DNA of 45,054 bases from a virus (taxonomy: Duplodnaviria > Caudoviricetes). The position numbers and the translations under genes are program-made. The stretch's first letter is position 1, and every line of letters begins with the position of its first letter. This document shows, piece after piece, positions 13,152 through 35,618 of this stretch. Below the pieces are notes generated by a model, which saw only the letters and a program-made list of their open reading frames with translations, was not told the DNA's origin and did not search any database. The stretch spans positions 1 through 45,054 of IMG/VR virus record IMGVR_UViG_3300017747_002686, one strand, 5' to 3'.

Positions 13152-14401
13152 TGCCGGCCAGCCCGTTCTCGAAGCTGGTCGAATGGGTTGGCGAAGCGCC
13201 GGCTGCCGCGAAGTCTGCGGTGGCTGGGGCTGCTGCCAGTATGGACGCAGGAGATAAGGCCGCGCTGGCCCTCTCCACTGTCCCTGTAGTGGGCGACGTG
13301 GCTGGCGTGGCTAACGACGTGCGCAACTACATCACCGGCCGAGAGGAGACCACCCCGTTTAACGTAGGCATGACCCTGGCGGACGCGCTGATCCCGTTCG
13401 TCCCGAAGGGCACCATCCCGAACGCCTTGGGCATTATCGTCGGTCGCAAGTCGAAGAAGTGGGACCGCAGGGCCGAGGAGCGGGCGCAGATTCTTCTGGA
13501 CGATCTGAGCACAGGTGGCGGTATCAACCCGAACACCGGCAAGATCGACCCGGCTGACGCCCAGGCTATCTACGAGAAGCGCGGCATCTACTTCTCGGAC
13601 AAGGACCAGCCGATGTCTATGATCAGCGACAAGGACTCGAAGCTGGATGTCGGCAAGGTGGTGAACGGCGCGAAGATGAAGCTGTCTGAGCTGTTTGAGC
13701 ACCCTGAGCTGTACGACCACTACCCTGAGCTGCGTGACCTGGCCGTCCGAATCGTCCCCAAAGACTCGCGCTACCACGGCGCTGCCTGGTACGACCCGAA
13801 GGAGGGAATGCCGACCGCGTATGTGGAGATCGCGGAAGGGCACACCCCACGCTCCCTGAAGAACACGCTACTGCACGAGGTGAACCACATCATCCAAGGT
13901 GTGGAGAATTTCTCCCTGGGCTCAGCCCCTGGATCAGCGGACTCGATCAAGCGGTGGGTGAACAGCCTGCCTCCGGGTACCAAGACCGCACCGGTGAAGA
14001 ACGCCGGCCTGGACGTGTGGGAGGAATTCGAGCGGCTAGACGGTAACGCCCAGCTTGAAGACCTGTACGGCCTACGGGGCGCACGCGCCATCTCCCGTGA
14101 GATGCGGCAGGGGTATGCCACCGTGGATTCTGTGACCCAGCTGGAGGAATTCTCCCGCAACCTGGGCGCAGTGGGCGGCTTCCCGACACTGAAGAAGCGC
14201 ATCGACGCGGCCGTGGTCGAGGCGAAGAAGCTGCCGTTGGAGACAGACCACCAGATTTACGAGCGGATGGGTGGTGAGGCGCGGAGCCGGCAGGTGGAGG
14301 AAGTGTCTCACATCGGGTCAGACAAGATTCGCACCGTTGATATGAGCAAGATGCGCCGCACCAACGGCGATGAGCTTACCGAAGCGGACATCATCCCATG
14401 A
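13148..14401 (+). CDS. Polyvalent-protein-like zincin metallopeptidase, probably virion-delivered
   Basis: 417 aa; ISDKDSKL...KLSELFEHPELYDHYPEL and LLHEVNHIIQGVENF (HExxH) plus Y..MGGEARSR.VE; N-terminal PVVGDVAG...LIPFVP segment. Confidence 0.65.
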   Translation: MMPASPFSKLVEWVGEAPAAAKSAVAGAAASMDAGDKAALALSTVPVVGDVAGVANDVRNYITGREETTPFNVGMTLADALIPFVPKGTIPNALGIIVGRKSKKWDRRAEERAQILLDDLSTGGGINPNTGKIDPADAQAIYEKRGIYFSDKDQPMSMISDKDSKLDVGKVVNGAKMKLSELFEHPELYDHYPELRDLAVRIVPKDSRYHGAAWYDPKEGMPTAYVEIAEGHTPRSLKNTLLHEVNHIIQGVENFSLGSAPGSADSIKRWVNSLPPGTKTAPVKNAGLDVWEEFERLDGNAQLEDLYGLRGARAISREMRQGYATVDSVTQLEEFSRNLGAVGGFPTLKKRIDAAVVEAKKLPLETDHQIYERMGGEARSRQVEEVSHIGSDKIRTVDMSKMRRTNGDELTEADIIP

Positions 14402-15048
14402 GCACGTGGCCGGTCGAGTACCTGGCTGATACCGCCTTCGGCGAGCAGGACAACAGCGCTGATCTTGGCGCTGTTGCCTTCGGCGCACCCACCCGCAGCA
14501 ATGCAGGGTGGGCGGTGGAGTGGTCACAATCTGACGTAGCAACCATCACACAGGAGACACCCGTGAAGAACACCAGTGCAGAGTTCCGGCCCGCACTTGA
14601 GGGCCTGGCCAGCCGGCTGAACATCAAGCCTGAATGGCTCATCTCCGCTATCAACTTCGAGACAGGCGGCAGCTTCAGCCCCTCGGTACGCAACAAGGCG
14701 AGCGGCGCAACTGGCTTGATCCAATTCATGCCGACCACAGCCAAGGCGCTGGGCACCAGCACCGACGAGCTGGCGAAGATGACCGACGTACAGCAGCTGG
14801 AATATGTGGAGAAATACTTCCGTCAGTTCAACAAGCCGCTGCTCAACCTGGGAGACGTGTACTCCACCATCCTGTGGCCCAAGGCGGTTGGCAAACCGGA
14901 CGACTTCGTGTTGTTCAAGCAAGGCACGATGGCCTACCGCCAGAACAGCGGGCTCGATGTCGGCAAGAAAGGCTACGTCACGCGCGGTGACGCGGTCAGC
15001 TATGTGGAGAAGCGCGCGAAGGCAATGGAGGCGAGGAATGGACAGTAA
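14398..15048 (+). CDS. Lytic transglycosylase (SLT family)
   Basis: L...I.FETGGSFSPSVRN..SGATGLIQFMPTTA..LG: catalytic Glu and GLMQ-type motif. Confidence 0.9.
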   Translation: MSTWPVEYLADTAFGEQDNSADLGAVAFGAPTRSNAGWAVEWSQSDVATITQETPVKNTSAEFRPALEGLASRLNIKPEWLISAINFETGGSFSPSVRNKASGATGLIQFMPTTAKALGTSTDELAKMTDVQQLEYVEKYFRQFNKPLLNLGDVYSTILWPKAVGKPDDFVLFKQGTMAYRQNSGLDVGKKGYVTRGDAVSYVEKRAKAMEARNGQ

Positions 15049-18347: not shown

Positions 18348-18729
18348 TGCGTTCCTTTTGTGTGATGACATGGTGACACTCGCGGCAGAGACAACGAAGC
18401 CCGTCCGCCTCGCACAGCATGCGGAGGATGAACGGGCCGGCGTCGTGTTCGATGTCAACCAGCGTGCCGCAGGGCACGATGTGGTCAACGTCGATGAACT
18501 TCTCAGGGAAGTAGTGCTGACAGATGGCGCACTGGAACACCCACTTGAGGCGGTTGCCCCACTGCTCCCTGTCTGCGGCTGTGACAGCCCGCCTTGCTCT
18601 GCGCTTACACTCGTAGATCGGCTTCCACCGCTGAGACATGCGCCGGAGGGAGGAGTGAATCCACCCCCTGAACGCAGCCTCAGTCATGGTACCGGCGTTA
18701 CGAGTGCGGGCTACGAGAACCCGTGGCAC
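18310..18729 (-). CDS. HNH endonuclease
   Basis: CAIC...DVDHIVP...LCRECH zinc-binding HNH pattern. Confidence 0.85.
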   Translation of the reverse strand: MPRVLVARTRNAGTMTEAAFRGWIHSSLRRMSQRWKPIYECKRRARRAVTAADREQWGNRLKWVFQCAICQHYFPEKFIDVDHIVPCGTLVDIEHDAGPFILRMLCEADGLRCLCRECHHVITQKERNEQARPQDSSST

Positions 18730-19421
18730 TAGATGATCGAGTCAGCCAGCCCTGCCTGGAGCGACTGCTTCGCGCTGAACCACTGGTCCTTGCGGGCCGT
18801 GAACAGCGTGTCGAAGTCGCTGGCCGGTCGGCCGGAAGCGTCAGCGAAGATGTCCTTGATGCGTGCTTCCAGCATCTTCACGAACTCCAGCTCGTCCTCG
18901 ATCTCGTACGCCTTGCCCATCGCCCCGAAGGCAGCGCGGTGGATCATGACGAAGGCGGACGGACCTACCTCACGCTTGCTCGCAGCCTGGAGGATCACCG
19001 CACCCATGCTGGCAGCCATGCCACGCACTCGGATGGTGATGAAGTGGCCTTCCTTGCGGAAGCGCAGCAGCTCGTCGAACAGGCGGAAGCCTTCGATGAT
19101 GCTGCCGCCACCTGTGTTCATCTCGATGGTGATGTCGGCCTTGGGGTAGAGACGGCTGTACACTCGCAGGCTGCCGAGTAGCGAGCCCACCGACAGGCTG
19201 TTCACATCATCGTCGAACTCGAAGTAGCCGCGGTTGAAGTCGTACTCCGCCTTCTGCTTGTAGGCAGCGGCGTTGGCGGCGCGGTTCAGCTCCGAGACCG
19301 CCGCATCCTTGCGGGCTTCCTCGATACTGATCCGTGTCTGATCGGCCTTGGCTTCGTTGAGGCGAGCCTCAGCCAGGTACGCCGTGTCTTCCGCAGTGGT
19401 TGATACTTTCTTTGCGACCAT
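18729..19421 (-). CDS. clpP: ClpP-like serine protease
   Basis: NTGGG, GMAASMG (catalytic Ser), MIH (His), DQWFSA.Q.L..GLAD.I C-terminus. Confidence 0.85.
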   Translation of the reverse strand: MVAKKVSTTAEDTAYLAEARLNEAKADQTRISIEEARKDAAVSELNRAANAAAYKQKAEYDFNRGYFEFDDDVNSLSVGSLLGSLRVYSRLYPKADITIEMNTGGGSIIEGFRLFDELLRFRKEGHFITIRVRGMAASMGAVILQAASKREVGPSAFVMIHRAAFGAMGKAYEIEDELEFVKMLEARIKDIFADASGRPASDFDTLFTARKDQWFSAKQSLQAGLADSII

Positions 19422-22197: not shown

Positions 22198-24095
22198 CAG
22201 TGGCACTCCATCCAGTTGCGTCCCATCTTGTAGTCGCCAGCCAGTGGGCAGCGTACCTTGAAGCGCTTCTCAGCCCAGCGCATAGCCTCGTCGAAGGTCT
22301 CGCCAATGATCTTGGCGTTGGCTTCGGTCGTGGTCTCGAACTGTGCTTCGTCGTGCATGTGGATGATCTGCTCGAAGGGGATGCCCAGTCGGCGCAGTTT
22401 CTTGTGGGTGTAGCTGGTCGCTGCCTTGACCAGGATGGAGCCGGCGCTCTGCATGAGGGTGTTGAGACCGGCGTGGTTGTGACGGACGTACAGCTTGCGG
22501 CCGTCGAGCCCCATCAGCCACTTCTTCTTGATACCCTGCTCGATCCTTTCCATTAGTTTACCGTACTTCGGCAGACCTGTAAAGAACCGCTGACGCAGCA
22601 GCGCACCATCAGCCTCGGTGCCACTGAAGCCGGGCAGCCCAGCCACCACGCTACCAATCTTCGCATCACCAGCGCCGTAGATCAGGGCGTAGATGAACGT
22701 CTTGGCCACGTTGCGGAAGGCATCGTGCTGCTCATGCCCTGGCCCTTCCTTGATTCGCTTCGTGCCCTTGGGAACCAGGCCCATCAGCTGCACGTTGAAC
22801 CAGTGGATGTCGCCGCTGAGAATCTGCCGGGTGTACTCCTCGTCACCCATGTAGTGTGCCAACATGCGCAGCTCCAGACCGGCAGCGTCGCAACCCACCT
22901 GCACCTTACCCTCTGGCACACAGAACAGGGCGCGCATCTCCTTGCCCCACATGGTACCAGGGCGAGGTACGTTGACCACCACACTGTGCCGCATACGGCC
23001 GGTAGGTGTGGCGTTGGCGAACGCACGGGCTTCGATGCGCCCATCCTCTCGCACCTTGCTGAGCCAGCCACGCACCTGGCCAAGCCGGGTGATGGCGACG
23101 AAGCGCTCAGCCAGCGCCTTGCCGATGCCGCCAAGCTGCGCCGTGATGCTGTCCTCGGTGAACTTCGGGTTGCCCTTCTCGGTCCACTCGGTCGGCGTCC
23201 AGCCATGCAGCATGAGCAGTTGGATGACCTGGTGCCTGGAGTCGAGGTCATACTCGCTGAAGCTGACCCGGTCGAACTCGCCGCCGATGGTCACACCGTT
23301 GACAGAGTGCGACATGCCCCAGTCACCGCAGTCGATGAGGACGTTGGCATCCTTCTCGCCCGGCTCCAGACCTAGCGCCTTCCATGCAACAGCAGACGGT
23401 GCGCCGTTCTTCTTGAACGCCTTGGCGACGGGCTCACCCTGTACACACTTCGGCTTGATGAAGCCAGCGCAGTAGGTGGTGCGCTCAGCGATGTAATCCG
23501 TCAGCTGCTGGACTAACTTGTTAGCTGCGTCGAGGTCGAAGCGCACGCCGACGTACGCCTGCCGTGCCATGATGGCAGCGATGTCGTGCTCAAGCAGCAG
23601 GCTGGTGGACCAGTCATGTGTGCTCAGGTACTTGTGGTGCAGGTAGCGGTCGATCTTGCGCAGGGTGTCCACGTCCTGGTCGCAGTAGGTGCCCATCTCC
23701 TCGGTGTACTCAGCCCACGGGTCGATGCCCGCTGCCTCACAGCGCTCTTGGTAGTCGTCCTTCGGCGCATTGACACGCACACCCCAGTCCTTCAGGGAGT
23801 GGGTGCCGCTGTACTCCGGGTCCACCACTGAGCACACCACCTTGGTGTCGAACAGGATGTGGCCTCGCGCCTTCAGGTCCATGCCGAATCGCTTGAGGAC
23901 CGGGGCGTCGAAGCCTACCTCGTTGTGTGCGATGCACATGGTGGCAGGTAGAAGCTGATCGACTACCGCCTTCACCGCGGCCAAACCTACAGCGCGCTGG
24001 ACAGGCTGGTCATCGAAGGCGTAGGACATGCAGTGGATGAACAGGCCCTGCTTGCGCAGGAGCCCGTTGGTTTCCAAGTCGTAGTAGAACTTCAC
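22197..24095 (-). CDS. polA: DNA polymerase family A (T7-like) with 3'-5' exonuclease
   Basis: Exo motifs YDLETNG, HN.VGFD, YC.QDV; polymerase motif A DAAGLELR, motif B R..AKTFIYALIYG, motif C HDE. Confidence 0.96.
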   Translation of the reverse strand: MKFYYDLETNGLLRKQGLFIHCMSYAFDDQPVQRAVGLAAVKAVVDQLLPATMCIAHNEVGFDAPVLKRFGMDLKARGHILFDTKVVCSVVDPEYSGTHSLKDWGVRVNAPKDDYQERCEAAGIDPWAEYTEEMGTYCDQDVDTLRKIDRYLHHKYLSTHDWSTSLLLEHDIAAIMARQAYVGVRFDLDAANKLVQQLTDYIAERTTYCAGFIKPKCVQGEPVAKAFKKNGAPSAVAWKALGLEPGEKDANVLIDCGDWGMSHSVNGVTIGGEFDRVSFSEYDLDSRHQVIQLLMLHGWTPTEWTEKGNPKFTEDSITAQLGGIGKALAERFVAITRLGQVRGWLSKVREDGRIEARAFANATPTGRMRHSVVVNVPRPGTMWGKEMRALFCVPEGKVQVGCDAAGLELRMLAHYMGDEEYTRQILSGDIHWFNVQLMGLVPKGTKRIKEGPGHEQHDAFRNVAKTFIYALIYGAGDAKIGSVVAGLPGFSGTEADGALLRQRFFTGLPKYGKLMERIEQGIKKKWLMGLDGRKLYVRHNHAGLNTLMQSAGSILVKAATSYTHKKLRRLGIPFEQIIHMHDEAQFETTTEANAKIIGETFDEAMRWAEKRFKVRCPLAGDYKMGRNWMECH

Positions 24096-25735
24096 AGTGG
24101 CTCGTCTCCTGATCCATCGTCCTCGGGTGGCTCGGCTGCCTGCACCAGGCGGCTGGCCTCGTGGTCCCAGTACATGCGGTCAGCTGGCCCAGTGTCGCCA
24201 GTCTCACGGCATTTGAGCACATGTATCTGTGACACGTTCCGCTAGTAGTCATCCTCGTGCTGCTTGTTGCGGGACACGCCGAAGATGTCGAAGCTGATCT
24301 GGTACAGCGAACCGCTGCCCTTCATGTCCTCCTCGGTAGGTACAGCACCCTGCGACCAGCTCTTGGTGCCACCGGGTGGCTTGCGCAGATGGCTGATCAG
24401 ACAGACGTGAGACTTGGTGGTCTCAGCGAAGTCGAGCAGCTCCTCCATCATGGTGTCCTGGTCGCCCAGGCTACCGCCCTTGTCACCGAACTCACGCACA
24501 CCAAGGGTGACGTGGTCGAGGAAGAACAGGCGGCAGCCCAGCTCGTAGTGCAGGTGCTTGAACTTGCCAAGCAGGCCACCCTTCGCTTCCTTGCTGCGCC
24601 GGCCGTTCTCCATCGTGAAGATGCGGTTGGTGCCGTACGTCTCGTCGTATGCCTGCTTGCGCTCGGCGGCGGTCATGTCGTACCACCGCTTGCCCATATG
24701 AAACTGCATCAGGCCACGCCACGTCTTCTCGGGCGCTTCCTCCAGCTCCACCTCACCGATCTTCCAGTCGCTGGTGAGCAGCGCATGCTGCTTGAGGCGG
24801 CGGATGTACGAGGTCTTGCCGACTGACGAGCCGGCGATCCACGTGCTGATCTCTGCCTCACGCATGCCCAGCGTCTTGCGGGCCATCATGTCGAACTCGG
24901 CAGGGTAGGGGATGAAGTCGGGCTGGACGTACGACTCCATCCGACGCCACACTTCCTCGCCGTAGATGATGCCGGTCGGGGTGTAAGCTCGTGCGTTCCA
25001 CAGGCAGTCGAGGAACTGCTTGGCCTGCCCGTCGATCAGCATCTGGTTGGGATCGGACGGCAAGGTGAGAAGCACCGGCTTGCCGTGCGACAGCGCAGCG
25101 GCGAACTCGTCAGCCTGTGACCGACCGCCCTCGTCGGGGTCGTAGGCAATGGCGATCTTCTCGAAGCCCTCGAAGTATTCCAGGTTGCGGCGCCAGTTCT
25201 CTGCGCCCAGGTTGGCCACCACACGGTAGCCCTTGCCCTGCGATGCGAGCATCTGGTGGACAGCGAGGCAATCCTCGGCGCCCTCTACAACGATGAGCAT
25301 CTTGCCGCCGTTGCCGGCTACATGTGAACCGAAGGGCAGGTTGCCTGCGGTCTCACCGATGCGGCTGGTGTCTGTCTTCTGCCGATGGCCAGGGGCACGG
25401 GTGAGTTTCTTCTGGTACCCTACGTGGGCACCATCCTTGTACAGCGGGAAGTAGTAGGCCAGCTCGCTGCGGTCGGTGGTGCTGTACTCGATACGCACAC
25501 CGAACAGCGCCGCCGTCTTGGCGTCGATCCCTCGGGCTAACATGTTACCCGGTGAGAGTTGGTTGATCTGTTGCAAGGTACCTCTCCAGTCGCGTTCGCT
25601 TAGGGCCTCGGCCTTGCCGCTCCCTCCTGTGTTGTGGCTGCACACGAAGCAGTGAGTGCTACCGTTGTCGTACACCGCAGCGCCATCACTGCTGCCGCAC
25701 TTCTGGCAAGCCTGATGCCTGATGAATCTGCCCAT
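24092..25735 (-). CDS. T7 gp4-like primase-helicase, interrupted by an in-frame TAG at 24242-24244
   Basis: Zn finger C..CGSSD...HCFVC, TOPRIM VEG.ED and D.D..G, Walker A GSSVGKT, LFFLDH, SHL, KGSG; frame continues after TAG with VLKCRETGDTG to TGA at 24092. Confidence 0.9.
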
Positions 25736-25843
25736 CTGATTCTCCTGTTAGAGCGGTAGTAGGGTAGCGGGTTAGCAGGGGGGGGGTAGCGGGTTATCTC
25801 ACTACCCTGCTAACAGCTACTGCTACTAGAAGCTGTTAACAGT

Positions 25844-25872
25844 AGTGTATCAACAGCCCGCGTCGGTGTCAA
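25844..25872 (-). promoter_or_regulatory. Sigma70-type promoter for the replication operon
   Basis: Minus strand TTGACA (25872-25867), 17-nt spacer, TACACT (25849-25844), ~110 nt upstream of the primase start. Confidence 0.75.
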
Positions 25873-26026
25873 CCAGCAAGTCCTGCGCATCCGGTGCTGC
25901 CTTGTACACCTCACCCTTGATGGTGTCACGGCACGGGAAGCAGATGTCCCAATACTCCTGGCAGATCGGCATCTTCGCTCGGGCTGCTGCCTCGGTCAGC
26001 TCGCAGTTGCAAGCACGGCACCTCAT
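25850..26026 (-). CDS. Small zinc-finger protein (58 aa)
   Basis: MRCRACNCEL...DICFPC, two CxxC pairs; ATGA overlap with upstream gene. Confidence 0.7.
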   Translation of the reverse strand: MRCRACNCELTEAAARAKMPICQEYWDICFPCRDTIKGEVYKAAPDAQDLLVDTDAGC

Positions 26027-26451
26027 CCGCCCACCACCTTCTCCAACTTCTGGAACAGATCCATCATGGCAGAGTTACAACCCGGCAAGCGGTGATTCTC
26101 AAACAGCTTGATCGCCGGCTCCTTGATGTAGTCGTAACTCAGGGTGTTCTTCAATGCGTGCTCCCATTCATTCCGGCCGCAAGTTCCGACCAGGATGCGG
26201 AGTACACACAGCTCGTCGTAGGTGAAGGACACCACCTGGCCAGGCAGTACCTGCTGCCAGTGGCTGGATTTGAAGTCACGGGCCGACATGAAGTGAACAT
26301 CACCGGCTGCATCAGCAGGGCAGCGCCAGTCACGGGTATTAGTGTAGGCAAACGAGTAGGTGACGCCGGCCTTAAAGCCGACGCTCTTGTCCTCCATCAT
26401 GAAGTCTTTGATGCAGAGCATCTTGATGTGGTCAGCGTGTTTAATTTTCAC
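26023..26451 (-). CDS. Hypothetical early protein
   Basis: 142 aa ORF overlapping both neighbours; N-terminal domain resembles 30647-30823. Confidence 0.7.
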   Translation of the reverse strand: MKIKHADHIKMLCIKDFMMEDKSVGFKAGVTYSFAYTNTRDWRCPADAAGDVHFMSARDFKSSHWQQVLPGQVVSFTYDELCVLRILVGTCGRNEWEHALKNTLSYDYIKEPAIKLFENHRLPGCNSAMMDLFQKLEKVVGG

Positions 26452-26777
26452 AGTACCTCCGTGGTCTTGATGAAGCGGTAAGGTCGGCGGTGGGCGTAGC
26501 GCTCCAGTCGATCAGGGTTGTTGAACCACTTGACGCGGCTGGCTGCCTGCGCCTCGTTCTTGTAGCCGGTGACCAGGTCGTCGTACTTGTCGAGCACCAC
26601 CCACACCGTGAGCGGCTGCGGCTTGCGGCGGAACTTGTTGAACACTCGGTCGGTCAGCAGGTGAGCGCTGTGCTGATCAAGCGGCGCCCAGGTAAAGCCG
26701 GTGTTCCACTCCAGCTCCACACCTTCAGCGTAAAGCTTCAACCACTCAGCGTTGTGTGGTAGATTCTTTGCGGTCAT
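26448..26777 (-). CDS. Hypothetical early protein
   Basis: SD AGGAG before ATG 26777. Confidence 0.7.
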   Translation of the reverse strand: MTAKNLPHNAEWLKLYAEGVELEWNTGFTWAPLDQHSAHLLTDRVFNKFRRKPQPLTVWVVLDKYDDLVTGYKNEAQAASRVKWFNNPDRLERYAHRRPYRFIKTTEVL

Positions 26778-26925
26778 TCGGTTTCTCCTGTAGTGCAAGG
26801 GTTTCAATACGGATGCGCTCAGCGTCGGCACATTGCAGACGCTTCGGTACTTGGTTCACGTTGGACCAGCGCTGGTCTAGTATCAGGCGCTGGGTGTATG
26901 TCAGGGTACCACCGACTGCGGCCAT
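26746..26925 (-). CDS. Hypothetical early protein
   Basis: TGATG coupling to upstream gene, 59 aa. Confidence 0.45.
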   Translation of the reverse strand: MAAVGGTLTYTQRLILDQRWSNVNQVPKRLQCADAERIRIETLALQEKPNDRKESTTQR

Positions 26926-27494
26926 CAGAACTCCAGGCTCATCTGTGATGTGCGAAGCACGGCTGTCTCCAGTGTGCCAGGTGTAACACCCCAGCTGCGG
27001 CACACGCCGGCCCACACTGCGGCCTGCGCATCCCGTACACTGATGCCGTTGCGGTTAGCAACCTCGGTCATCAGCTTCAGGGCGACTAACATGTTAGCCT
27101 TGGTGGTGACACGCGAGTGCGGCACGTCGAGGGCACGGGCCATCCACGTATCCAGCACCAGCGCAGTGGTGTCACCATGCAGGGCACGAGCGAAGGCGCT
27201 CGTCTTCGGGCCACGTATCTCGCCCGTCTTGCGGTAGTGGGCCAGCGCCACACGGGTGGACTTGATGACGCCACCACGAGGCAGCTTGCCCGTCTCGAAG
27301 TAGGCCACCGTTAAGTCCCAGTTGCGCTTCACCGACATGCGAGGGCTAATGACGGCGAGCACGTTGATGAAGTCGTCGTGATCCCAGCCATGCCGCTCGC
27401 ACTCGGTGATGATGAACTCACGAGCGTCATCGTACCAGTTCACCCAGCCGTTGCCCCACTGGCACAGCTGATCCAATCGCTCGATCATGTTCAT
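26925..27494 (-). CDS. Helix-hairpin-helix DNA-glycosylase-like protein (DUF7178-like)
   Basis: WY..A....LAVISP...V.RN, GPKT.AF..AL.GD...LV.DTW..RA and QA.VW pattern. Confidence 0.6.
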   Translation of the reverse strand: MNMIERLDQLCQWGNGWVNWYDDAREFIITECERHGWDHDDFINVLAVISPRMSVKRNWDLTVAYFETGKLPRGGVIKSTRVALAHYRKTGEIRGPKTSAFARALHGDTTALVLDTWMARALDVPHSRVTTKANMLVALKLMTEVANRNGISVRDAQAAVWAGVCRSWGVTPGTLETAVLRTSQMSLEF

Positions 27495-28270
27495 CAGAAG
27501 GGTGTCCCGTGGTATAGAACATTGGGTGGGTTGCGCAACGGCACAGCGTTCGGCATCTTCACGATCCAAGGGTTGGCGTGCGCTGCATCCACCACGTTGA
27601 TCCGGGGACGCACCGATGGCGCCGGTACCTTGTAGTCGTTCGGCGGTGTGGCCCTGGTCTGCGTGACGTGCAGCTTGTTGTCCACCTTCTCCACAGTGGA
27701 GCGACCCGACGTGTAGCCGTAGTCGTACACCACCATGCGAGGGCGTGACCAGTGATGCTGCGTCTCACCTAACAGGCCGACGTTGTGGATCGAGTATTGG
27801 TTCTTGCCCAGGTACCGAACATCCACATCCAGATCACCGCCGAAGTAGGACCGTAGCACTGCCATGAACTCATCGCACTCCGCCTCGGCGGCGGTGAACA
27901 GGCGAGAGTTGCTGTCTACCTGCTGCTGCACCCCGTAGAACACACCGTCCACCTCACCCCACGCATGGTAGGGCAGCAGCTTGCCTTGCACATACTCCGG
28001 TGCGTCATGATACACACCCAGCTCACGCTGAATGTCCCACATCAGGTCCAAGCGGTCACGATGCAGCGAGCTAGCGTCATGCTTGCTGGCCTTGAGCACC
28101 CACTTCTGATGGTTGGCATATACCCCGTGCGTTGCCTTGTAGCACCCGCTCCCGATGAGGTGCGCGTTGCCACGCTTCAGCTGCTGCACCAACTCCTGCA
28201 CTAGCGGGAGGTTACGCTCTGCGTCGATGACTGTCACCATCGTGCGCCGATCTTGCTGTTCCGAATCCAT
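27494..28270 (-). CDS. Protein kinase-like protein (T7 gp0.7-like position)
   Basis: Gly loop IGSGCYK, VLK, alphaC Glu (QREL), catalytic D...HNVG, VVYDYG (DFG equivalent); SD GGAGG. Confidence 0.7.
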   Translation of the reverse strand: MDSEQQDRRTMVTVIDAERNLPLVQELVQQLKRGNAHLIGSGCYKATHGVYANHQKWVLKASKHDASSLHRDRLDLMWDIQRELGVYHDAPEYVQGKLLPYHAWGEVDGVFYGVQQQVDSNSRLFTAAEAECDEFMAVLRSYFGGDLDVDVRYLGKNQYSIHNVGLLGETQHHWSRPRMVVYDYGYTSGRSTVEKVDNKLHVTQTRATPPNDYKVPAPSVRPRINVVDAAHANPWIVKMPNAVPLRNPPNVLYHGTPF

Positions 28271-28271
28271 T

Positions 28272-28376
28272 CTACCCTCCGTGCATGAAGCGTGTGACCA
28301 GCCCAAGATATACCGCGAGGCCGGCGAGTAAGGTGATAGCGACACCGATGATCACTCCGACCAGGAAGGCTAACAT
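28272..28376 (-). CDS. Single-pass membrane peptide (34 aa)
   Basis: Starts at the ATG inside palindrome 28371; MLAFLVGVIIGVAITLLAGLAVYLG. Confidence 0.6.
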   Translation of the reverse strand: MLAFLVGVIIGVAITLLAGLAVYLGLVTRFMHGG

Positions 28377-28377
28377 G

Positions 28378-28593
28378 TTAGCCAGCGTTGGACCAGAACG
28401 CATCCAGGTAGTCAGGCTCCAGGCCCAGGTTGTCAGCGATGATGCCTTCCAATTCTTCGAGCGGGCCATCGCAGGCCAACACACTGGTGATCTGCTCCTG
28501 CGTCTCACGCACCGCCTCCTCCGCATCGAAGCGGCTGATGCCGTCGCGCTTGATCAGGATGTTCACGATGGCTAGCTTGCTTACGTCGGTCAT
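28378..28593 (-). CDS. Small acidic hypothetical protein
   Basis: 71 aa; IL.KRDGIS..DAEE and E.II...LGLEPDY pattern; stop lies in palindrome 28371. Confidence 0.75.
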   Translation of the reverse strand: MTDVSKLAIVNILIKRDGISRFDAEEAVRETQEQITSVLACDGPLEELEGIIADNLGLEPDYLDAFWSNAG

Positions 28594-28793
28594 GTTTCTT
28601 CTCCTCGCTTGTTGAAGTCGGTGATGTGTACTAGGAAGGTGCCGCCGTTGCCGTCAGGCTCACGGCTGTAGAGGGCGAGGCGTAGCTCGCCGGCCAGTGC
28701 ATCAGCAGCACGGCGTGCCATCCCTCGGTCATCGAGACGGTAGGATTCCACGCCCATGCTGGTGGTCACTGCAACGCGCAGCTCAAACGGCAT
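28590..28793 (-). CDS. Hypothetical early protein
   Basis: ATG with GAGG SD, ATGA overlap with downstream gene. Confidence 0.55.
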   Translation of the reverse strand: MPFELRVAVTTSMGVESYRLDDRGMARRAADALAGELRLALYSREPDGNGGTFLVHITDFNKRGEET

Positions 28794-29136
28794 GACACGC
28801 CTCGGTGTACACGCAGTGCTCGGTGCCGTCCACGTAGATGACACCGATGGCATCCTGCTTGTACTCGTAGGCCACGGTCAGCATCGAACGCTTCACGTCA
28901 TGCCGAGCGGAGCGGTTGGGCGTGAAGCCCACGAAGGTAGCCGCACCCTCGATGTCACCACCCCAGATACCCAGCTGCCCAGCTGGACCGCGGGTCATGT
29001 TCGGTTGCTGGATAATCTGCACGCCGTTAGAGATCAGCGCCAGCTGCACCGCACGGCGGAAGCCCAGCCACTGCTCATCATCCATCGGTGCGCCGCTGAT
29101 GTTGCGGCCGATGGTCACCACTATGGTACCACGCAT
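28783..29136 (-). CDS. Possible SAM lyase-like (ferredoxin/PII fold) protein
   Basis: G.W...E....A.EY.QDAI pattern reminiscent of T3 SAMase; SD AAGGAG. Confidence 0.4.
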   Translation of the reverse strand: MRGTIVVTIGRNISGAPMDDEQWLGFRRAVQLALISNGVQIIQQPNMTRGPAGQLGIWGGDIEGAATFVGFTPNRSARHDVKRSMLTVAYEYKQDAIGVIYVDGTEHCVYTEACHAV

Positions 29137-29296
29137 AGGCTTCTCCTTGTAGGGACAATCAGAACAGGTTGGGTTGCACGGTACACCGTGGATGCCAGCG
29201 CCGTAGCATACGCACTCGTTCACGACGGCCACCGATGCTCAAGCCACACCATCACCACGATGGCGGCAGCCCACAGTGCAGCCATGTCGGCGCCGC

Positions 29297-29590
29297 TCAC
29301 AGCATCACGCTGCGGTCGAGCACCTGCACTGCGCCATCGGCCAGCTCGGTCCACGAGGTGGTGATGCGGCCACGTACCTGCACCACACCGCAGCGGTCCT
29401 TGATGCAGCGGAACAACCCGTCGTTGGACTCAGGGTGCTGCGGTTGGTAGTCGATGCTGGCGATCAGCGTCCACCCACCCCGCATGAAGTACACACCCTG
29501 GTCCGTGTACCCGATGCCAGTGAGTGCAGTGTACGCTTGGCGTAGGTTCTTGGCGATGATGCCAGAGTGCGAGAGCGGAGCGACTAACAT
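29297..29590 (-). CDS. Hypothetical early protein
   Basis: Starts at the ATG in palindrome 29585, GAGG upstream. Confidence 0.6.
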   Translation of the reverse strand: MLVAPLSHSGIIAKNLRQAYTALTGIGYTDQGVYFMRGGWTLIASIDYQPQHPESNDGLFRCIKDRCGVVQVRGRITTSWTELADGAVQVLDRSVML

Positions 29591-29591
29591 G

Positions 29592-29936
29592 TTAGCCCGT
29601 CCTCGTGATGCACACACGCCACTCGTTCGGTAGGCGAGGGTCAGCGATGCGTTCAACTGAGAAGTTGCGGTCGGTTCTGCTGACCAGGTGGGATCGGATA
29701 GAGTGCAGCCGTTGCTCCAGCCTCCAACACGGAGGCAAGTCCGTGTAGAACTCAGCACCGAACGTGTGCGACTCACCAATCTGCAACCCACGCAGCACTG
29801 CGGTTGGGCTCACCTCGGACAGCGTACTCTTAACGCTGGGGATGACACGAAGGGCAGGTCCGCCGCTCGGCATGCGCTTCGCACCAGTGGCAGCGCGGAT
29901 CATCGCATCGACTTCAACTTGCGTGTACCTCTTCAT
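29592..29936 (-). CDS. Possible small DNA-binding protein
   Basis: C-terminal L.IGES..F ... F.V.R......RV.ITR pattern resembles small phage winged-helix-like proteins; stop in palindrome 29585. Confidence 0.45.
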   Translation of the reverse strand: MKRYTQVEVDAMIRAATGAKRMPSGGPALRVIPSVKSTLSEVSPTAVLRGLQIGESHTFGAEFYTDLPPCWRLEQRLHSIRSHLVSRTDRNFSVERIADPRLPNEWRVCITRTG

Positions 29937-29937
29937 C

Positions 29938-30078
29938 TCAGGTATCTCCGAAGCACATGACATCCAGCTCGGCCATCGAGTGGACATGGTGGGTGTGAAT
30001 GGCGTAGCAGGCGGTGCCGAACACGCTGAAGACCAGCGACAGCACCAGCCCGATCACGATGTAGTCATCGTGCCTCAT
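29938..30078 (-). CDS. Small membrane protein (46 aa)
   Basis: MRHDDYIVIGLVLSLVFSVFGTACY; ATGA overlap with upstream gene. Confidence 0.55.
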   Translation of the reverse strand: MRHDDYIVIGLVLSLVFSVFGTACYAIHTHHVHSMAELDVMCFGDT

Positions 30079-30434
30079 GACTTCGCCGCCAGGCGGTAGG
30101 CGGTAGACAGGTCACGCAGCTTGATCAGCTGATCCTCGGCCAGGGCGTACGTCTCGTGCTCGGACACACCCTTGAAGCCGGACTCGTAGTTCACGACACG
30201 CCACATGGTGTTGCCGTAGTCACCGATAAAGGGCTGCACTGACCACGGGTAGTGATCGCCCACGCTGTGGCCACGCAGGCCAGAGGTGTCACCGATGTGC
30301 GGCTTGGCCTCGACACCAGCCACGGCTAGCCCACCAGGCACATGGCCTGTGGTTCCGACCGCTTCACCTGCCTTCATGATGCCAAGTTCTTCGGCGCGCT
30401 TGTTCTGTGCCACGATGGATTCCAAATCGTACAT
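30075..30434 (-). CDS. Hypothetical early protein
   Basis: 119 aa, SD AAGGAG. Confidence 0.7.
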   Translation of the reverse strand: MYDLESIVAQNKRAEELGIMKAGEAVGTTGHVPGGLAVAGVEAKPHIGDTSGLRGHSVGDHYPWSVQPFIGDYGNTMWRVVNYESGFKGVSEHETYALAEDQLIKLRDLSTAYRLAAKS

Positions 30435-30437
30435 GTA

Positions 30438-30650
30438 CTACTCCTTGTTGTGTGATAGTTCGTCGGGCGTCATCAACCACGGGCTGGTTGGGTCAGGCCC
30501 GTCCTTCACCAGCCCACGCACCGGGTATGCGGTGAAGTAGGCAGGGTCAAGCACGTCGGTGACGGTGAAGGCCAGCCCGCGGCTAGCCTCGGCAGGGTAC
30601 AGATGGTTGATGAAGTAGGTGCTGCCTGCCTTGATGTCGGTGATGTTCAT
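30438..30650 (-). CDS. Hypothetical early protein
   Basis: 70 aa, ATGA overlap with upstream gene. Confidence 0.65.
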   Translation of the reverse strand: MNITDIKAGSTYFINHLYPAEASRGLAFTVTDVLDPAYFTAYPVRGLVKDGPDPTSPWLMTPDELSHNKE

Positions 30651-30823
30651 TGCGGTACCAGGGTGAAGTGATCGAGCCAGCCAGGGCTGGTGATGTAGTG
30701 CGGCATGCCTTGCTCGTTCGTGAACGCCAGCCCATCCGCTCGGTCGAGCGGCAGGTAGTAGCGGCCAGCGATGAAGCCCACGTCCCCACTCAGCAGACGC
30801 AGCGTCTTGTTGCAGCGGTACAT
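30647..30823 (-). CDS. Hypothetical early protein (paralogue of the 26023-26451 N-terminus)
   Basis: Starts at a TAACATG junction (palindrome variant 30818), GAGG SD. Confidence 0.6.
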   Translation of the reverse strand: MYRCNKTLRLLSGDVGFIAGRYYLPLDRADGLAFTNEQGMPHYITSPGWLDHFTLVPQ

Positions 30824-30824
30824 G

Positions 30825-31076
30825 TTACACCTCAGTGGTGCAGGTGACACGGTAGCTGATGACTTCCTTCGCACCCGGCAGCACACCGGCATGCTGAAGC
30901 CACTTCAGGTACTCGTTGGCCACGTACTCGCACTCGCTACGATCACCGCTTGCATGCGGCACGTTGCTGATGCTGCGTGGTTCGCAGAACTTGTAGCTGT
31001 GCCACTCGTGATCCACACGCTGGAGCATGGGATCAGGGAGGGACACGAGGATGGTGAGTGCGAGGCAGGCTAACAT
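30825..31076 (-). CDS. Hypothetical early protein with hydrophobic N-terminus
   Basis: Starts in palindrome 31071 directly after SD AAGGAG. Confidence 0.6.
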   Translation of the reverse strand: MLACLALTILVSLPDPMLQRVDHEWHSYKFCEPRSISNVPHASGDRSECEYVANEYLKWLQHAGVLPGAKEVISYRVTCTTEV

Positions 31077-31390
31077 GTTAGCTCCTTCTTGAGGTGCGTG
31101 ATCATCTGGTCGAGCAGCGCCCATCGTGCCTTGCCGTACTCGCTGTCATCCCACATGTCATCCTGATTGATGAACGCTCGGAACGCAGACTCGTTAGGAT
31201 CAGGCGACGGAACAGGGTACCCGGCATTTAGCCCCAGCTCATCGAAGATGTCGCTGCAATCTGTGATGTCCAAGCCGGCGTCGCTAGCCATATCGTTGAT
31301 GTTGTCGCAGATGCCTGTCTCTCGTACGTTAGGACCATCTGATTGCAGCTGACGCAGCAGGCCCAGCAGATTGTAGCGGGAGGATAACAT
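31070..31390 (-). CDS. Hypothetical early protein
   Basis: 106 aa; GIC...YPVP...W..SEYG..RW.LL..MI; starts in palindrome 31385 and stops in palindrome 31071. Confidence 0.75.
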   Translation of the reverse strand: MLSSRYNLLGLLRQLQSDGPNVRETGICDNINDMASDAGLDITDCSDIFDELGLNAGYPVPSPDPNESAFRAFINQDDMWDDSEYGKARWALLDQMITHLKKELTC

Positions 31391-31391
31391 G

Positions 31392-31546
31392 TTAGTTCTC
31401 CTTGATGACGAAGTGATAGCGCAGCACGTCCAGCGAAGCGCTGCTCAGGTAGCTGGTGTTGAACGCCTCACACAAGGCGTCAGCCATTGGGTTGTCCGGG
31501 TAGTGCCGGCCATCCACGTTGCGGAAGCACAGCGTGACGGCGTGCA
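31392..31546 (-). pseudogene. Frameshifted small gene (or single-base sequencing error)
   Basis: SD GAGGA + MHAVTLCFRNVDAG continues as HYPDNPMADALCEAFN...KEN-stop only in another frame; span is 155 nt, one short of a whole number of codons. Confidence 0.45.
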
Positions 31547-31750
31547 TCACGCAGTCCTCAGATGGTTATCCTTGTGCGCCGCAGCGTACGCCAACTGCTC
31601 GCTGCTGTAGGTGCGGGGACGGTAGCTGATCTCATCCGAGGTGATGCGTGCCCAGGCCCAGCGGCCAGGCTTCTTGGGGTTGCGGGTGAGGTTGATGATC
31701 TTGATGCCGCTCGCATCAACGACACGACGGATGAAGGCTTGGTTGGACAT
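31547..31750 (-). CDS. Hypothetical basic early protein
   Basis: SD AAGGAG before ATG. Confidence 0.65.
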   Translation of the reverse strand: MSNQAFIRRVVDASGIKIINLTRNPKKPGRWAWARITSDEISYRPRTYSSEQLAYAAAHKDNHLRTA

Positions 31751-31760
31751 GATGCTCTCC

Positions 31761-31997
31761 TTACTTGGTGGACAGGCGGGCCAGCTTGGAGCCGACGACA
31801 CGGCGGCGCAGCGTGCGCTTCAGCTCGTTGCTGCCGAGGCGCAGCGTCACGCCGGGGTTCTCGATGGTGAACGTCTGCTCCAGCTTGGTCAGCGGGTTGA
31901 TGAACGTCTGCTGACGGTAGGTCTTGGACTCGTGAACCATGCGCGGCACTTGCTTGGTGGCGGTGTGGTTCGGGCTGTTGGTGCGGGTCTTGCTCAT
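31761..31997 (-). CDS. Hypothetical basic early protein
   Basis: 78 aa, SD AGGAG. Confidence 0.7.
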   Translation of the reverse strand: MSKTRTNSPNHTATKQVPRMVHESKTYRQQTFINPLTKLEQTFTIENPGVTLRLGSNELKRTLRRRVVGSKLARLSTK

Positions 31998-32069
31998 AAC
32001 GTACTGCTCCTACGTGGGTTGGATGATGCGCCCTGTTACCAAGGCGCATGGTGCAACCAGACTAACATG

Positions 32070-32576
32070 TTAGCCTGCTCTCGGCACACCACGCATGTGA
32101 TGCTGGATGATGCGGGCCATCTTCGGTATCTGCCGGCGATTGAACTGCCGGTTCCACCCTCGTGCGCCGGCCAGTGCCGACAGCTCAGCGACCGACAGCT
32201 CACCCTGCTGCACGACGAGGCTGTAGTTCTCGCTCCACTGGAAGTGCCTACCTGCTGGCACCTGTAGCTTGGCATCGAACATGATCTGCTCGGTGCCCAG
32301 GTCCAGCTGAAGCACGACGTGCATCAACGAAAGGCCGTACTCCTCCACGTCCCTGATGTGGTGGATGCGACGAATGGCTCCGATCTCAGCGCGCGTCTCA
32401 TCCAGCTCGTTCTTCCCGCTATCCCACCCAGCCAGGCTACGGCCTGTCACACGGTAGCCCTTGCGCTGGAGCGCACCGCCTACCAGCGCAGCGTACACGC
32501 AGCACCCACCCTGGTTCAGGAAGGGCACAGCCTGCATCACCTCACGTCCCATCTCCTCCAACTTCTGAGCTAACAT
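32070..32576 (-). CDS. Hypothetical early protein with GGC...H motif
   Basis: Starts in palindrome 32571 after GGAGG and stops in palindrome 32063; N.GGCC..A and H..L motifs. Confidence 0.7.
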   Translation of the reverse strand: MLAQKLEEMGREVMQAVPFLNQGGCCVYAALVGGALQRKGYRVTGRSLAGWDSGKNELDETRAEIGAIRRIHHIRDVEEYGLSLMHVVLQLDLGTEQIMFDAKLQVPAGRHFQWSENYSLVVQQGELSVAELSALAGARGWNRQFNRRQIPKMARIIQHHMRGVPRAG

Positions 32577-32577
32577 G

Positions 32578-32742
32578 TTAGCCTCCAGCACGACGGCGCA
32601 TGGCCTCGATGGACTTCCGCTCACGCCTACCACGGGCGGTGTAATGCCCGATGGGATTGCGCTGCTCGCACTTCATCACGTACCACAGCAGGCCGCATGC
32701 CACCAGCCCGCTGAGCAGGCACAGCCAGAGCAGCGCGCTCAT
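32578..32742 (-). CDS. Small membrane protein
   Basis: MSALLWLCLLSGLVACGLLWYV plus basic tail; stop in palindrome 32571. Confidence 0.6.
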   Translation of the reverse strand: MSALLWLCLLSGLVACGLLWYVMKCEQRNPIGHYTARGRRERKSIEAMRRRAGG

Positions 32743-32903
32743 GACACGTTCGCCAGCTTGTGCAGCTGCGGCCACATCTTGGCCAGCTCAGCGCGCATCT
32801 CACCCACCACGCTCGGCTTCTGCGTCATGCCGATGTGCTGGTGCAGCGCACGGTACTCAGCCACGGTCAGCGACACGCGGCCAGGCTTCTGATACCTGTC
32901 CAT
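32739..32903 (-). CDS. Hypothetical early protein (54 aa)
   Basis: SD AAGGAG; MDRYQKPGRVSLTVAEYRALH; ATGA overlap downstream. Confidence 0.6.
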   Translation of the reverse strand: MDRYQKPGRVSLTVAEYRALHQHIGMTQKPSVVGEMRAELAKMWPQLHKLANVS

Positions 32904-32963
32904 CACCTTCTCCTTGCTCGAATGTTATAGCTGCACCCTGTTGCCAAGGTGCAGACTAACATG

Positions 32964-33269
32964 TTAGCCCGGCGTTCGGCCTGTCAGCCTACGCCCAGCA
33001 CTCTCCGCCGTGTCGCGGAACATGAACGGCACCACCACCGTGGTACCGAACCGGCTCGGGTCACGCCACACCGTGTGGCACAGGTGACGCAGCCCTGCCG
33101 CCTCGATCTCCTCGTCCGGCACCTCCTCGCCGCAGTAGAGGAACAGATACTGCAAGCCAGCAGACCAGCCACCTACCCGCTGCATCGCCTCGTGCCCAGT
33201 CTCGCCGGCATCAAGGTGCTGCTTGGTGACCACGCTGCTGAACACCAGCGCCTCGTGAAAGACTGACAT
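32964..33269 (-). CDS. Hypothetical early protein
   Basis: 101 aa; start in palindrome variant 33264, stop in palindrome 32957. Confidence 0.7.
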   Translation of the reverse strand: MSVFHEALVFSSVVTKQHLDAGETGHEAMQRVGGWSAGLQYLFLYCGEEVPDEEIEAAGLRHLCHTVWRDPSRFGTTVVVPFMFRDTAESAGRRLTGRTPG

Positions 33270-33270
33270 G

Positions 33271-33780
33271 TTAGCTCTCCAGCTCAGCGAGCAGCGCCTT
33301 CAGGGCGGCGATCACCACCGGGTTCTTGCCAGTGCGGCGGATGATCGTGAGCGCAGTCTTCCACGCATCGTCGCCACCGCCCATGTCCAAGCTGCCACCC
33401 GTGTCGCCGTCACCCTCACCAACGTCGCCCTGCCCATCGGACACAGCGCCAGCCGACTTGTCGGACTTGACAGCCTTCGCCCTGACGGCCTGCCACGCAG
33501 CCTTCACCTTGTCGCCGTCCACCTCAAAGCTGACACGCATGGTGCCCGCCTCGTTCGTGGTACGGTTGCAGCCCACCTTCCATGCTGCCAAGGCGTTCTT
33601 GCGCTTGCCGGCATCCTTCACGCCAGCAGCCACGCCGATGGCAGCGTCCAGCAGGTGCAGCTGGTCCGTCGCAGCGGCAGCCCGGATCAGCGCCGTCGTC
33701 TCACCGTAGGTGCCGACCGCGGTGACAAACCGCTTGCCAATGGCAACGGCCTGCTCGGTCGAGTATGTCTTGATGCTCAT
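33271..33780 (-). CDS. First clear early gene, Ala-rich hypothetical protein
   Basis: SD AGGAG before ATG 33780; biased codon usage. Confidence 0.75.
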   Translation of the reverse strand: MSIKTYSTEQAVAIGKRFVTAVGTYGETTALIRAAAATDQLHLLDAAIGVAAGVKDAGKRKNALAAWKVGCNRTTNEAGTMRVSFEVDGDKVKAAWQAVRAKAVKSDKSAGAVSDGQGDVGEGDGDTGGSLDMGGGDDAWKTALTIIRRTGKNPVVIAALKALLAELES

Positions 33781-34146
33781 GTGTTCGTTCTCCTGAGTGG
33801 TTGGGGAAGGGTAACATGTTAGCCCGGCCAGCAGGCAGCAGTGTATCCCTTCATGAACCACTCGCGTTATCGACTGCGGCAGGGTTAAGCCCCGACGCCA
33901 TCTCACGCTCAGACGGAGCTTGCCTGCTCCGTGCGTTCATCATAGCCGGCCTTTTCTTTGCCGACTACGCTCTGATTCCGGTCACGTCTAGCGTGCCTTG
34001 TCCTAGAGTCCGACCATATGCGGGGCCGTTCCTCGGGCGCTATTCGCCCGCTGTCATCAGACCAAGGGTCCGAGCCTTGCTCATGTTCATGCGTGCCGTA
34101 GCTCGCACCGGGCCTGTAGCGTGTCGCCCTTGTTATGCTGGATCGA

Positions 34147-34176
34147 AGCCTAGCGCAAGCCTTCGCATCCTGTCAA
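34147..34176 (-). promoter_or_regulatory. Candidate early sigma70 promoter
   Basis: Minus strand TTGACA-18 nt-TAGGCT. Confidence 0.5.
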
Positions 34177-34428: not shown

Positions 34429-34457
34429 TTATCCACATATCCACAGGGTTGTCCACA
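34429..34457 (+). promoter_or_regulatory. Cluster of three co-oriented DnaA-box-like 9-mers
   Basis: TTATCCACA (34429-34437), ATATCCACA (34437-34445), TTGTCCACA (34449-34457). Confidence 0.65.
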
Positions 34458-34832
34458 GGACGCGGTGCAGTGGACGAGAGGACCGCGCGCGTGCGCAGGC
34501 AGCGTGACGTGGCCACCAAGGAACCGGGCGCATGACGCGGGCGCGAGGAGAGAACGCGAGCGCGCTCAGGCACGTAGGCGCTGTGAGGGCGACAGGAGGA
34601 ACCGCGCGCACGCACACACGATCCCGCGCGTCCACACAGGCGAGCGCTGGCGGGCGCAGGCGGGCACGCGCGTCGCACCGGGCATGCCAGCACCAGCGAG
34701 CGGCGGAAGCGCGCAGGGGCCACCCAGGGGTGCCGGGGTGCCTCAGTGTGTACTTCCCGCGTGCCTCCAAAATCTCGCCAAAACCCTCGACCTGGGCCGG
34801 GCTGGCTCCTGGGCCAAGCGCGTTAGCAGGGC

Positions 34833-34860
34833 TTGACAAGCTGGAGGAACGTGCTATACT
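34833..34860 (+). promoter_or_regulatory. Sigma70-type promoter at the start of the structural arm
   Basis: TTGACA-16 nt-TATACT with extended -10 TG. Confidence 0.8.
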
Positions 34861-35538: not shown

Positions 35539-35545
35539 GCTGTAC

Positions 35546-35618
35546 GGGAGGATGGTGTAAAGGCTGCACGTCGGAATGTGAATCCGCAAGTAGGGGTTCG
35601 AGTCCCCACCTCCCTCCA
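35546..35618 (+). tRNA. Degenerate tRNA-like gene with GTG (His) anticodon
   Basis: Acceptor GGGAGG/CCTCCC, D arm GTGT/GCAC, anticodon arm CGGA-ATGTGAA-TCCG, T loop GGTTCGAGTCC, encoded CCA; several stem mismatches. Confidence 0.6.

Follow-up and report, generated by a model that had tools for sequence, protein, structure and literature searches.

Palindrome arrays in lytic phages have been published before without a known binder or function (PMC4351075). The Cluster O mycobacteriophages (Corndog), which lack an integrase, carry 34 copies of a 17-bp dyad across the genome, with no function assigned to them. The Cluster A stoperators (L5 repressor, TipsytheTRex) are described as asymmetric 13-mers that act in an orientation-dependent manner and are recognized by a monomeric helix-turn-helix repressor maintaining lysogeny (PMC9283540). 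Here, a stretch of 45,054 nt of tailed-phage DNA (IMG/VR record IMGVR_UViG_3300017747_002686, positions 1 to 45,054; "the window" hereafter means this whole stretch) was analysed for the palindrome TAACATGTTA, which is repeated between and within its early and replication genes. Judged from sequence comparison, the array is a real, conserved feature of a known but unexplained kind, accompanied by a new candidate protein family. The reading we favour, at about an even chance, is that the palindromes are docking sites for the product of the phage's own first early gene (gp1), forming an operator or roadblock array that would damp transcription of the early arm.

The arrangement had been proposed as undescribed in the initial annotation, but Cluster O is a published parallel (PMC4351075). 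Shared with it are the many dyad copies above chance, the lack of an integrase, the higher density toward one end, the mixture of intergenic and in-gene copies lying mostly off promoters, and a predicted dimeric binder (PMC4351075). The Cluster O word was absent from the host genomes checked in that report, and the present word showed no enrichment in the candidate host genomes searched. On the other hand, the Cluster O word TGTTCGG-N3-CCGAACA is not enriched in the window, and word, phage family and morphology differ. The genomes studied here carry 9–15 copies, nearly all in one arm, versus 34 genome-wide in Cluster O, with frequent stop/start fusion, gaps that widen inward in three genomes and, on either side of one specific candidate gene, a site (PMC4351075). 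Like the Cluster A stoperators, the palindromes form many sites in short intergenic gaps, with a proposed block to elongation by host RNA polymerase and a phage-encoded binder, putative here, whereas the word is palindromic and no integrase or helix-turn-helix repressor was detected (PMC9283540). As in the Cluster K start-associated sequences, a repeated word is tied to the starts of non-structural genes, but 3 of 12 copies here lie mid-gene and 2 provide a stop only, so the link to starts is loose (PMC4351075). By analogy, the array resembles Cluster O and may act like Cluster A stoperators, being a member of neither. No description of TAACATGTTA or of such arrays in Zobellviridae was found in the literature, subscription papers lying outside the coverage.

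An exact count recovered all ten perfect copies of TAACATGTTA at the positions given by the initial annotation, versus 0.00 expected in 100 shuffles, and it is the sole enriched palindrome in the window. With up to one mismatch, 12 copies are present versus 0.16 expected. The two additional ones are at 33264 and at 23514, inside the DNA polymerase gene, the latter having been overlooked before. Regarding the three variants proposed previously, 33264 was kept (one mismatch), 30818 is doubtful (two mismatches) and 30429 was dropped, having four mismatches and only ACATGT in common. The core is a perfect palindrome with its halves 2 bp apart, polarity being found in the flanks only, and the perfect copies extend to CTAACATGTTAG (7/10) or GCTAACATGTTAGC (3/10). 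All ten lie in the early/replication arm, in agreement with the reported absence from the structural arm.

Junctions were counted on window gene calls curated by hand. That most copies form a TAA-C-ATG junction proved to be overstated, since stop and start are joined in four of the ten perfect copies (32571, 31385, 29585, 28371) plus the variant at 33264. The other six comprise two with a stop only, one start with an overlapping TAG, one copy upstream of the first gene and two inside genes. The two in-gene copies (27087, 25538) and the two that open frames of 10 and 19 codons (32063, 32957) were found as described. The codon TTA occurs only three times in the 25 larger window genes (10,196 codons, 814 of them for leucine), and two of these three fall in palindromes, in the primase and polymerase genes. 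Since in-gene copies force this near-absent codon, the proposal that the DNA word itself is under selection is supported, as it is by the DUF7178 orthologues of the window and the relative G001, in which, at 44% identity, matching codons carry the site.

With 45 kb, about 62% G+C and ends that overlap by 123 nt, the window is a complete phage assembly. According to PHROG matches, from 70 proteins scanned, the + strand carries the structural arm; the − strand carries the early genes and, after them, the genes for primase/helicase, family A polymerase, exonuclease and ligase, giving two converging arms with a T7-like polymerase and primase. No PHROG match to an RNA polymerase, sigma factor, integrase, repressor or partition system was found among these 70 proteins, many small genes being without a family, and no repressor family was found among the 28 proteins searched with Pfam. 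Terminase and portal are nearest to Zobellviridae (ICP2, CW02, Lentibacter phages; 40–49% identity in the best records), the terminase being 42–49% identical in the 30 best records. By its terminase, portal, capsid and replication genes, which carry the family traits, the window is a Zobellviridae-like short-tailed podophage. With ICP2, PA11, RIO-1, VpV262, MEP401 and GX1-k141_326647 it shares the terminase, the T7-like polymerase/primase, the lack of an RNA polymerase and the converging arms, whereas these six GenBank genomes have neither a TAAC-type array nor a gp1 homologue, GX1 and VpV262 having other palindromes. Placement trees, built from capsid and terminase only (the latter in quick mode), group the window with G001:C16, G002:C74, G003, G004 and G006 (support 98/98 in the capsid tree), which makes it part of a separate uncultured clade beside the classified Zobellviridae. 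No cultured phage matched at the DNA level, and no close cultured relative was found by protein either. Scans with the clade-specific primase returned only the window's own contig from metagenomes and one distant match from viral contigs.

Within the clade, the early arm is covered in G001:C16 and G003 only, G004 and G006 lacking the arm and G002 being partial, and the array is kept in both complete relatives. G001:C16, with a primase 51% identical to that of the window, carries the same word in six perfect and three one-mismatch copies. G003 (primase 55% identical, 45% G+C) has 15 TAAC-N-GTTA, 11 of them as TGATAAC-N-GTTATCA, with 14 of the 15 in the early/replication arm and all four bases found at the centre. 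DNA sites bound by dimers typically have such fixed arms with a variable centre. The G003 word mostly stands after a stop codon and before a ribosome-binding site and contains no ATG; it also occurs inside primase and polymerase, and one copy (35784) lies in the untranslated end region. In the partial G002, TGTAAC-W-GTTACA occurs twice in perfect form, ahead of ribosome-binding sites, and once as a variant. Conservation thus extends to the array, the arm in which it lies, the widening of its gaps and the TAAC...GTTA core, but not to the stop-start fusion. Since the fusion is present in 4 of 10 perfect copies and absent in G003, it reads as packing, fitting a site into a gapless operon, and not as function.

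The spacing between window sites is 307–678 nt near the genome end and then 1214–2024 nt, and the inward widening described initially holds over 11 gaps (Spearman 0.82, p 0.002). The trend is also observed in G001 (rho 0.69, p 0.058), where it is weakest, and in G003 (rho 0.72, p 0.006). Sites are found at 6 of the first 9 gene junctions versus 2 of the next 16 (p 0.01), so the gradient exceeds a gene-size effect. By analogy to the annotated terminal repeats of RIO-1 and VpV262, we infer a genome end near 34.5 kb, between divergent promoters.

The word could act in the mRNA, as a small hairpin or as a protein or nuclease target at translation starts. Most copies are at or just upstream of starts, the window sites show a G...U flank pair in 6 of 12 cases, and several fold at −4 to −8 kcal/mol. 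However, 4 of the 9 G001 sites have A–C as the first flank pair, the stem is broken in two variants there, the G003 hairpins reach about −1 to −5 kcal/mol, and neither the mid-gene copies nor G003 35784 have a start nearby. Because the hairpin is lost in G001 and three copies lie mid-gene, this is the least probable of the explanations considered.

Crossover points for swapping early genes as cassettes with built-in stop and start, also suggested in the initial annotation, would account for the four shared early genes ordered differently in the window and G001, the moved gene (32576-32070) starting in a site in both. Two deletions in Cluster O were likewise ascribed to recombination between repeats (PMC4351075). 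However, no recombinase match was found among the 70 window proteins, a host enzyme being conceivable, and sites lie inside essential genes as well as in DUF7178, the primase and polymerase genes being among those interrupted by the word. Two of the genomes have a 2-bp centre and the third, G003, a single free base, with no ATG in its word. Integron cassettes also differ in that no integrase match and no long attC fold-back are found here, the halves being 2 bp apart, and the flanks are unlike the integron core pattern. One other assembly of the phage showed no joints at sites, a weak comparison of contigs that may come from the same sample. Cassette exchange is thus very improbable, and occasional recombination at the sites is possible as a by-product.

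The candidate binding protein is gp1. In the window, G001 and G003, a site is found at the stop of this gene plus another upstream of it. A profile of the three first genes retrieved 15 proteins at E ≤ 0.001 among 1.84 billion, and 14 of them were aligned as the gp1 family, one 790-aa repeat protein being left out. When the window-, G001- and G003-type rows were removed, the profile still recovered the three first genes (E 1e-19, 5e-14, 6e-37), with nothing else below E 0.36 in 3437 open reading frames of the 26 genomes of the comparison set. The family and the TAAC-type array occur in the same three of these 26 genomes. Models of gp1 and of a homologue agree on four helices, the last one basic and continuous with a beta-hairpin, after which come a linker (acidic in gp1) and a tail of two helices (predicted local distance difference test 73 and 86). 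A word search with gp1 gave itself as the sole match; the ESM Atlas returned viral clusters at 0.92–0.93 and, as a lead only, DUF3102 at 0.82. For two of the first-gene proteins searched, no cultured homologue was found. A winged-helix assignment read by eye was not supported, such rows appearing at E 0.4–1.6, and the first genes of PA11, RIO-1 and ICP2 (phrog_1448, 14737), considered as further members, did not prove to belong to the family.

In the wider family, for which the other 22 genomes of the set (some partial) were compared, further early modules show a comparable arrangement. G025 has five GTCTC-N4-GAGAC flanking a different first gene (G025:C1 1761-5349). Its sister G012, whose replication genes are 85–90% identical, carries instead a wholly different early module (G012:C1 440-3166) without the gene or the sites. 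The contrast fits a self-contained first-gene-plus-palindrome module. Read by eye, G012 appears to rely on repeated sigma-70-like promoters between its early genes. In G018 (G018:C1 16460-29021), eleven TTCYTARGAA plus variants were found, 10 of the 11 in the early/replication arm and many inside replication genes, and two paralogues of first-gene type are encoded there. A second first-gene family is common to G025 and G018, whose word cores are also similar. GX1 ORF61 resembles the G018/G025 first genes by eye only and gave no match in the search.

In the proposed mechanism, the host sigma-70 polymerase would read the early arm, starting at about 34.2 kb and 25.87 kb, where the promoter matches lie (Table 1), and gp1 would be made first and accumulate. 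It would bind the dyads, probably as a dimer, and bound sites in series would act as roadblocks or operators that progressively attenuate transcription, also just past the primase promoter. The outcome would be negative feedback on gp1 and shut-off of the early genes, while the site-free structural arm would stay active. Among the options listed in the initial annotation, operators or roadblocks for a dimeric protein give the best fit, with a candidate protein now at hand; its binding, dimerization and repression are predictions from sequence.

Table 1. Palindrome sites, candidate binder and promoter matches in the window (positions of the whole stretch).
Feature	Position	Strand	Basis
Sigma-70-like promoter match, structural arm; arm without any site	34833..34860	+	consensus match
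Sigma-70-like promoter match, early arm (TTGACA...TAGGCT), ~330 nt before first site	34147..34176	-	consensus match only
Perfect site, 32 nt upstream of first early gene	33812..33821	.	exact match
First early gene, encoding gp1 (P0091; 169 aa), the candidate binder; unannotated family	33271..33780	-	profile searches, site flanking
One-mismatch site; stop of gp1 and start of next gene	33264..33273	.	mismatch scan, gene calls
Perfect site; stop only, opens 19-codon frame	32957..32966	.	exact match, gene calls
Perfect site; stop and start of 32576-32070, G001 orthologue likewise starts in site	32571..32580	.	exact match, gene calls
Perfect site; stop only, opens 10-codon frame	32063..32072	.	exact match, gene calls
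Perfect site; stop and start	31385..31394	.	exact match, gene calls
Perfect site; start, overlapping TAG stop of 31390-31070	31071..31080	.	exact match, gene calls
Two-mismatch copy at junction; doubtful	30818..30827	.	mismatch scan
Perfect site; stop and start	29585..29594	.	exact match, gene calls
Perfect site; stop and start of 34-aa hydrophobic frame	28371..28380	.	exact match, gene calls
Perfect site inside DUF7178 gene (27494-26925); same codons hold site in G001 orthologue	27087..27096	.	exact match, orthologue comparison
Sigma-70-like promoter match upstream of primase (TTGACA-17-TACACT)	25844..25872	-	consensus match only
Primase leader (109 nt), six half-sites (TAAC or GTTA)	25737..25845	-	6 observed vs 0.76 expected, p 0.0002; stretch chosen after seeing data
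Perfect site inside primase/helicase, TTA at codon 65	25538..25547	.	exact match
Site with one mismatch in the DNA polymerase gene, TTA at codon 193	23514..23523	.	mismatch scan

Several observations weigh against gp1 acting as a transcriptional roadblock protein. In the window, the perfect sites and the promoter matches do not overlap, and the promoter scan itself gave 4 sigma-70-like matches versus 3.2 expected. Asymmetry and orientation are both required of Cluster A stoperators for a block to elongation (PMC9283540), and a part in transcriptional regulation was judged unlikely for the Cluster O palindromes by the authors who described them (PMC4351075). The co-occurrence of gene and array is limited to three genomes of one clade, so shared ancestry alone explains the match; the profile test has some circularity, since it was the profile of those three genes that retrieved the other 11 family members. 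The presence of the G025 sites in a swapped module makes their joint loss partly trivial. Foldseek gave no match for gp1 at E ≤ 0.001, so that no known DNA-binding domain was matched, the best VIA Z was 6.8, to generic helical bundles, and no Pfam or PHROG family was found for the protein. DNA binding by gp1 is therefore suggested by context and charge, not by structure. In addition, the three genomes weakly share one early gene besides gp1, and one only, a small Cys-rich gene (26026-25850) that precedes the primase promoter (E 8e-4, 1e-7); a similar gene was seen by eye in G012, a genome without the array. Finally, the relative G017 has six parS-like words near its early end.

The array might serve as a coat, in which a phage protein (gp1 or one ejected from the virion) would coat, protect or organize the first-entering DNA end, for instance against host nucleases or silencing proteins. 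Away from the genome end, the sites thin out more than the density of junctions accounts for, they do not coincide with promoter matches, in-gene copies continue the spacing, and for Cluster O its authors favour a function apart from initiation control (PMC4351075). However, gp1 could act only once the end has entered and been transcribed, the other genome end is without an array, and the fact that G025 and G012 share core genes with an array in one only speaks against a core virion protein. This explanation is regarded as unlikely. From the initial proposal of loading sites that protect or pull in the first-injected DNA, the protection or packaging part survives; if gp1 is the binder, the densest sites are already in the cell when it is made, and pulling DNA in is therefore unlikely.

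Slightly less probable is a host protein as the binder, a regulator or a chromosome organizer whose DNA site the phage would have borrowed or would present as a decoy. G017, a Zobellviridae-like phage, has six perfect copies of the parS-like word GTTYCACGTGRAAC clustered at its early end (G017:C1 32092-32991), three of them in a 67-bp tandem repeat. G017 may load host ParB, and these six words make it seem that host-site borrowing occurs in the family. DnaA-box-like words also stand near the early end of the window (three at 34429-34458, one of them a perfect TTATCCACA) and, as perfect TTATCCACA, at the matching end of G012 (712, 735) and G025 (1706). Furthermore, G026, an unrelated tailed-phage fragment with 66% G+C, has 3–4 G003-type words; ATCTGATAAC-N-GTTATCAGAT, with the core as in G003, precedes its structural genes (G026:C1 3437, 5894, 15012). 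However, among 251 bacterial genomes of one candidate host order, that of bin G001, the word was not enriched, being matched in 48 with a maximum of 6 copies and with counts like those of the reversed control. The six copies present in the 3.8-Mb bin G001 all belong to its phage contig, binning being no proof of host, and the spacing shifts from 2 to 1 bp within one clade.

With a similarly low probability, lytic podophages of this family could carry swappable modules of a first gene with its own palindrome. A new kind of DNA-binding protein would then coat the first-injected 10–15 kb in a graded way, both shielding the DNA and timing the early-to-late switch of a phage that lacks an RNA polymerase, and protein and word would be rewritten together, as in the change from 2-bp to 1-bp spacing.

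New with respect to the published arrays are a small candidate protein, three natural protein-word pairs with two spacings and the contrast between sister genomes; the question is approachable with synthetic genes and oligonucleotides, without a cultured phage. If the roadblock reading were true, it would explain early-gene shut-off in a phage without its own RNA polymerase, add a DNA-binding family unmatched in Pfam, PHROGs and the PDB, and yield small orthogonal repressor-operator pairs.

Elsewhere in the family, GX1 (L215) has four intergenic GTTGTCTAGACAAC before early genes (41779-45585) and VpV262 (L216) six dispersed AAAGT-W-ACTTT. Weak palindrome signals were obtained in G007, G008, G020 and G023, with 4 TAAC-N1-2-GTTA in G008 versus 2 controls. 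Arrays were not seen in RIO-1, PA11, ICP2, MEP401, G011, G012, G014, G015, G021 or G022, nor in four T7-like phages that carry a PA11/RIO-1/ICP2-type first gene and were scanned over their first 16 kb. Motif scans of viral contigs (37 and 23 of 64 parts) gave, among the matches listed, G003 and the unrelated G026 and no new related array. In PA11 (L213; 43400-45200), early genes are apparently bracketed, by eye, by long imperfect inverted repeats, possibly RNA-processing stems.

Some minor features of the window were also observed. The primase/helicase has an early TAG at codon 498 (24242-24244, −), which is probably an assembly error or a strain variant, since another assembly of the phage reads through to 547 aa (P0090). 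A tRNA-His(GUG) opens the structural arm (35545-35617, +) and has no counterpart in G001:C16 or G003. A protease gene (PHROG "head maturation protease") common to all three relatives lies inside the replication arm (18729-19421, −), and the two late genes closing the structural arm (13148-15048, +) have peptidase or baseplate-hub-like matches.

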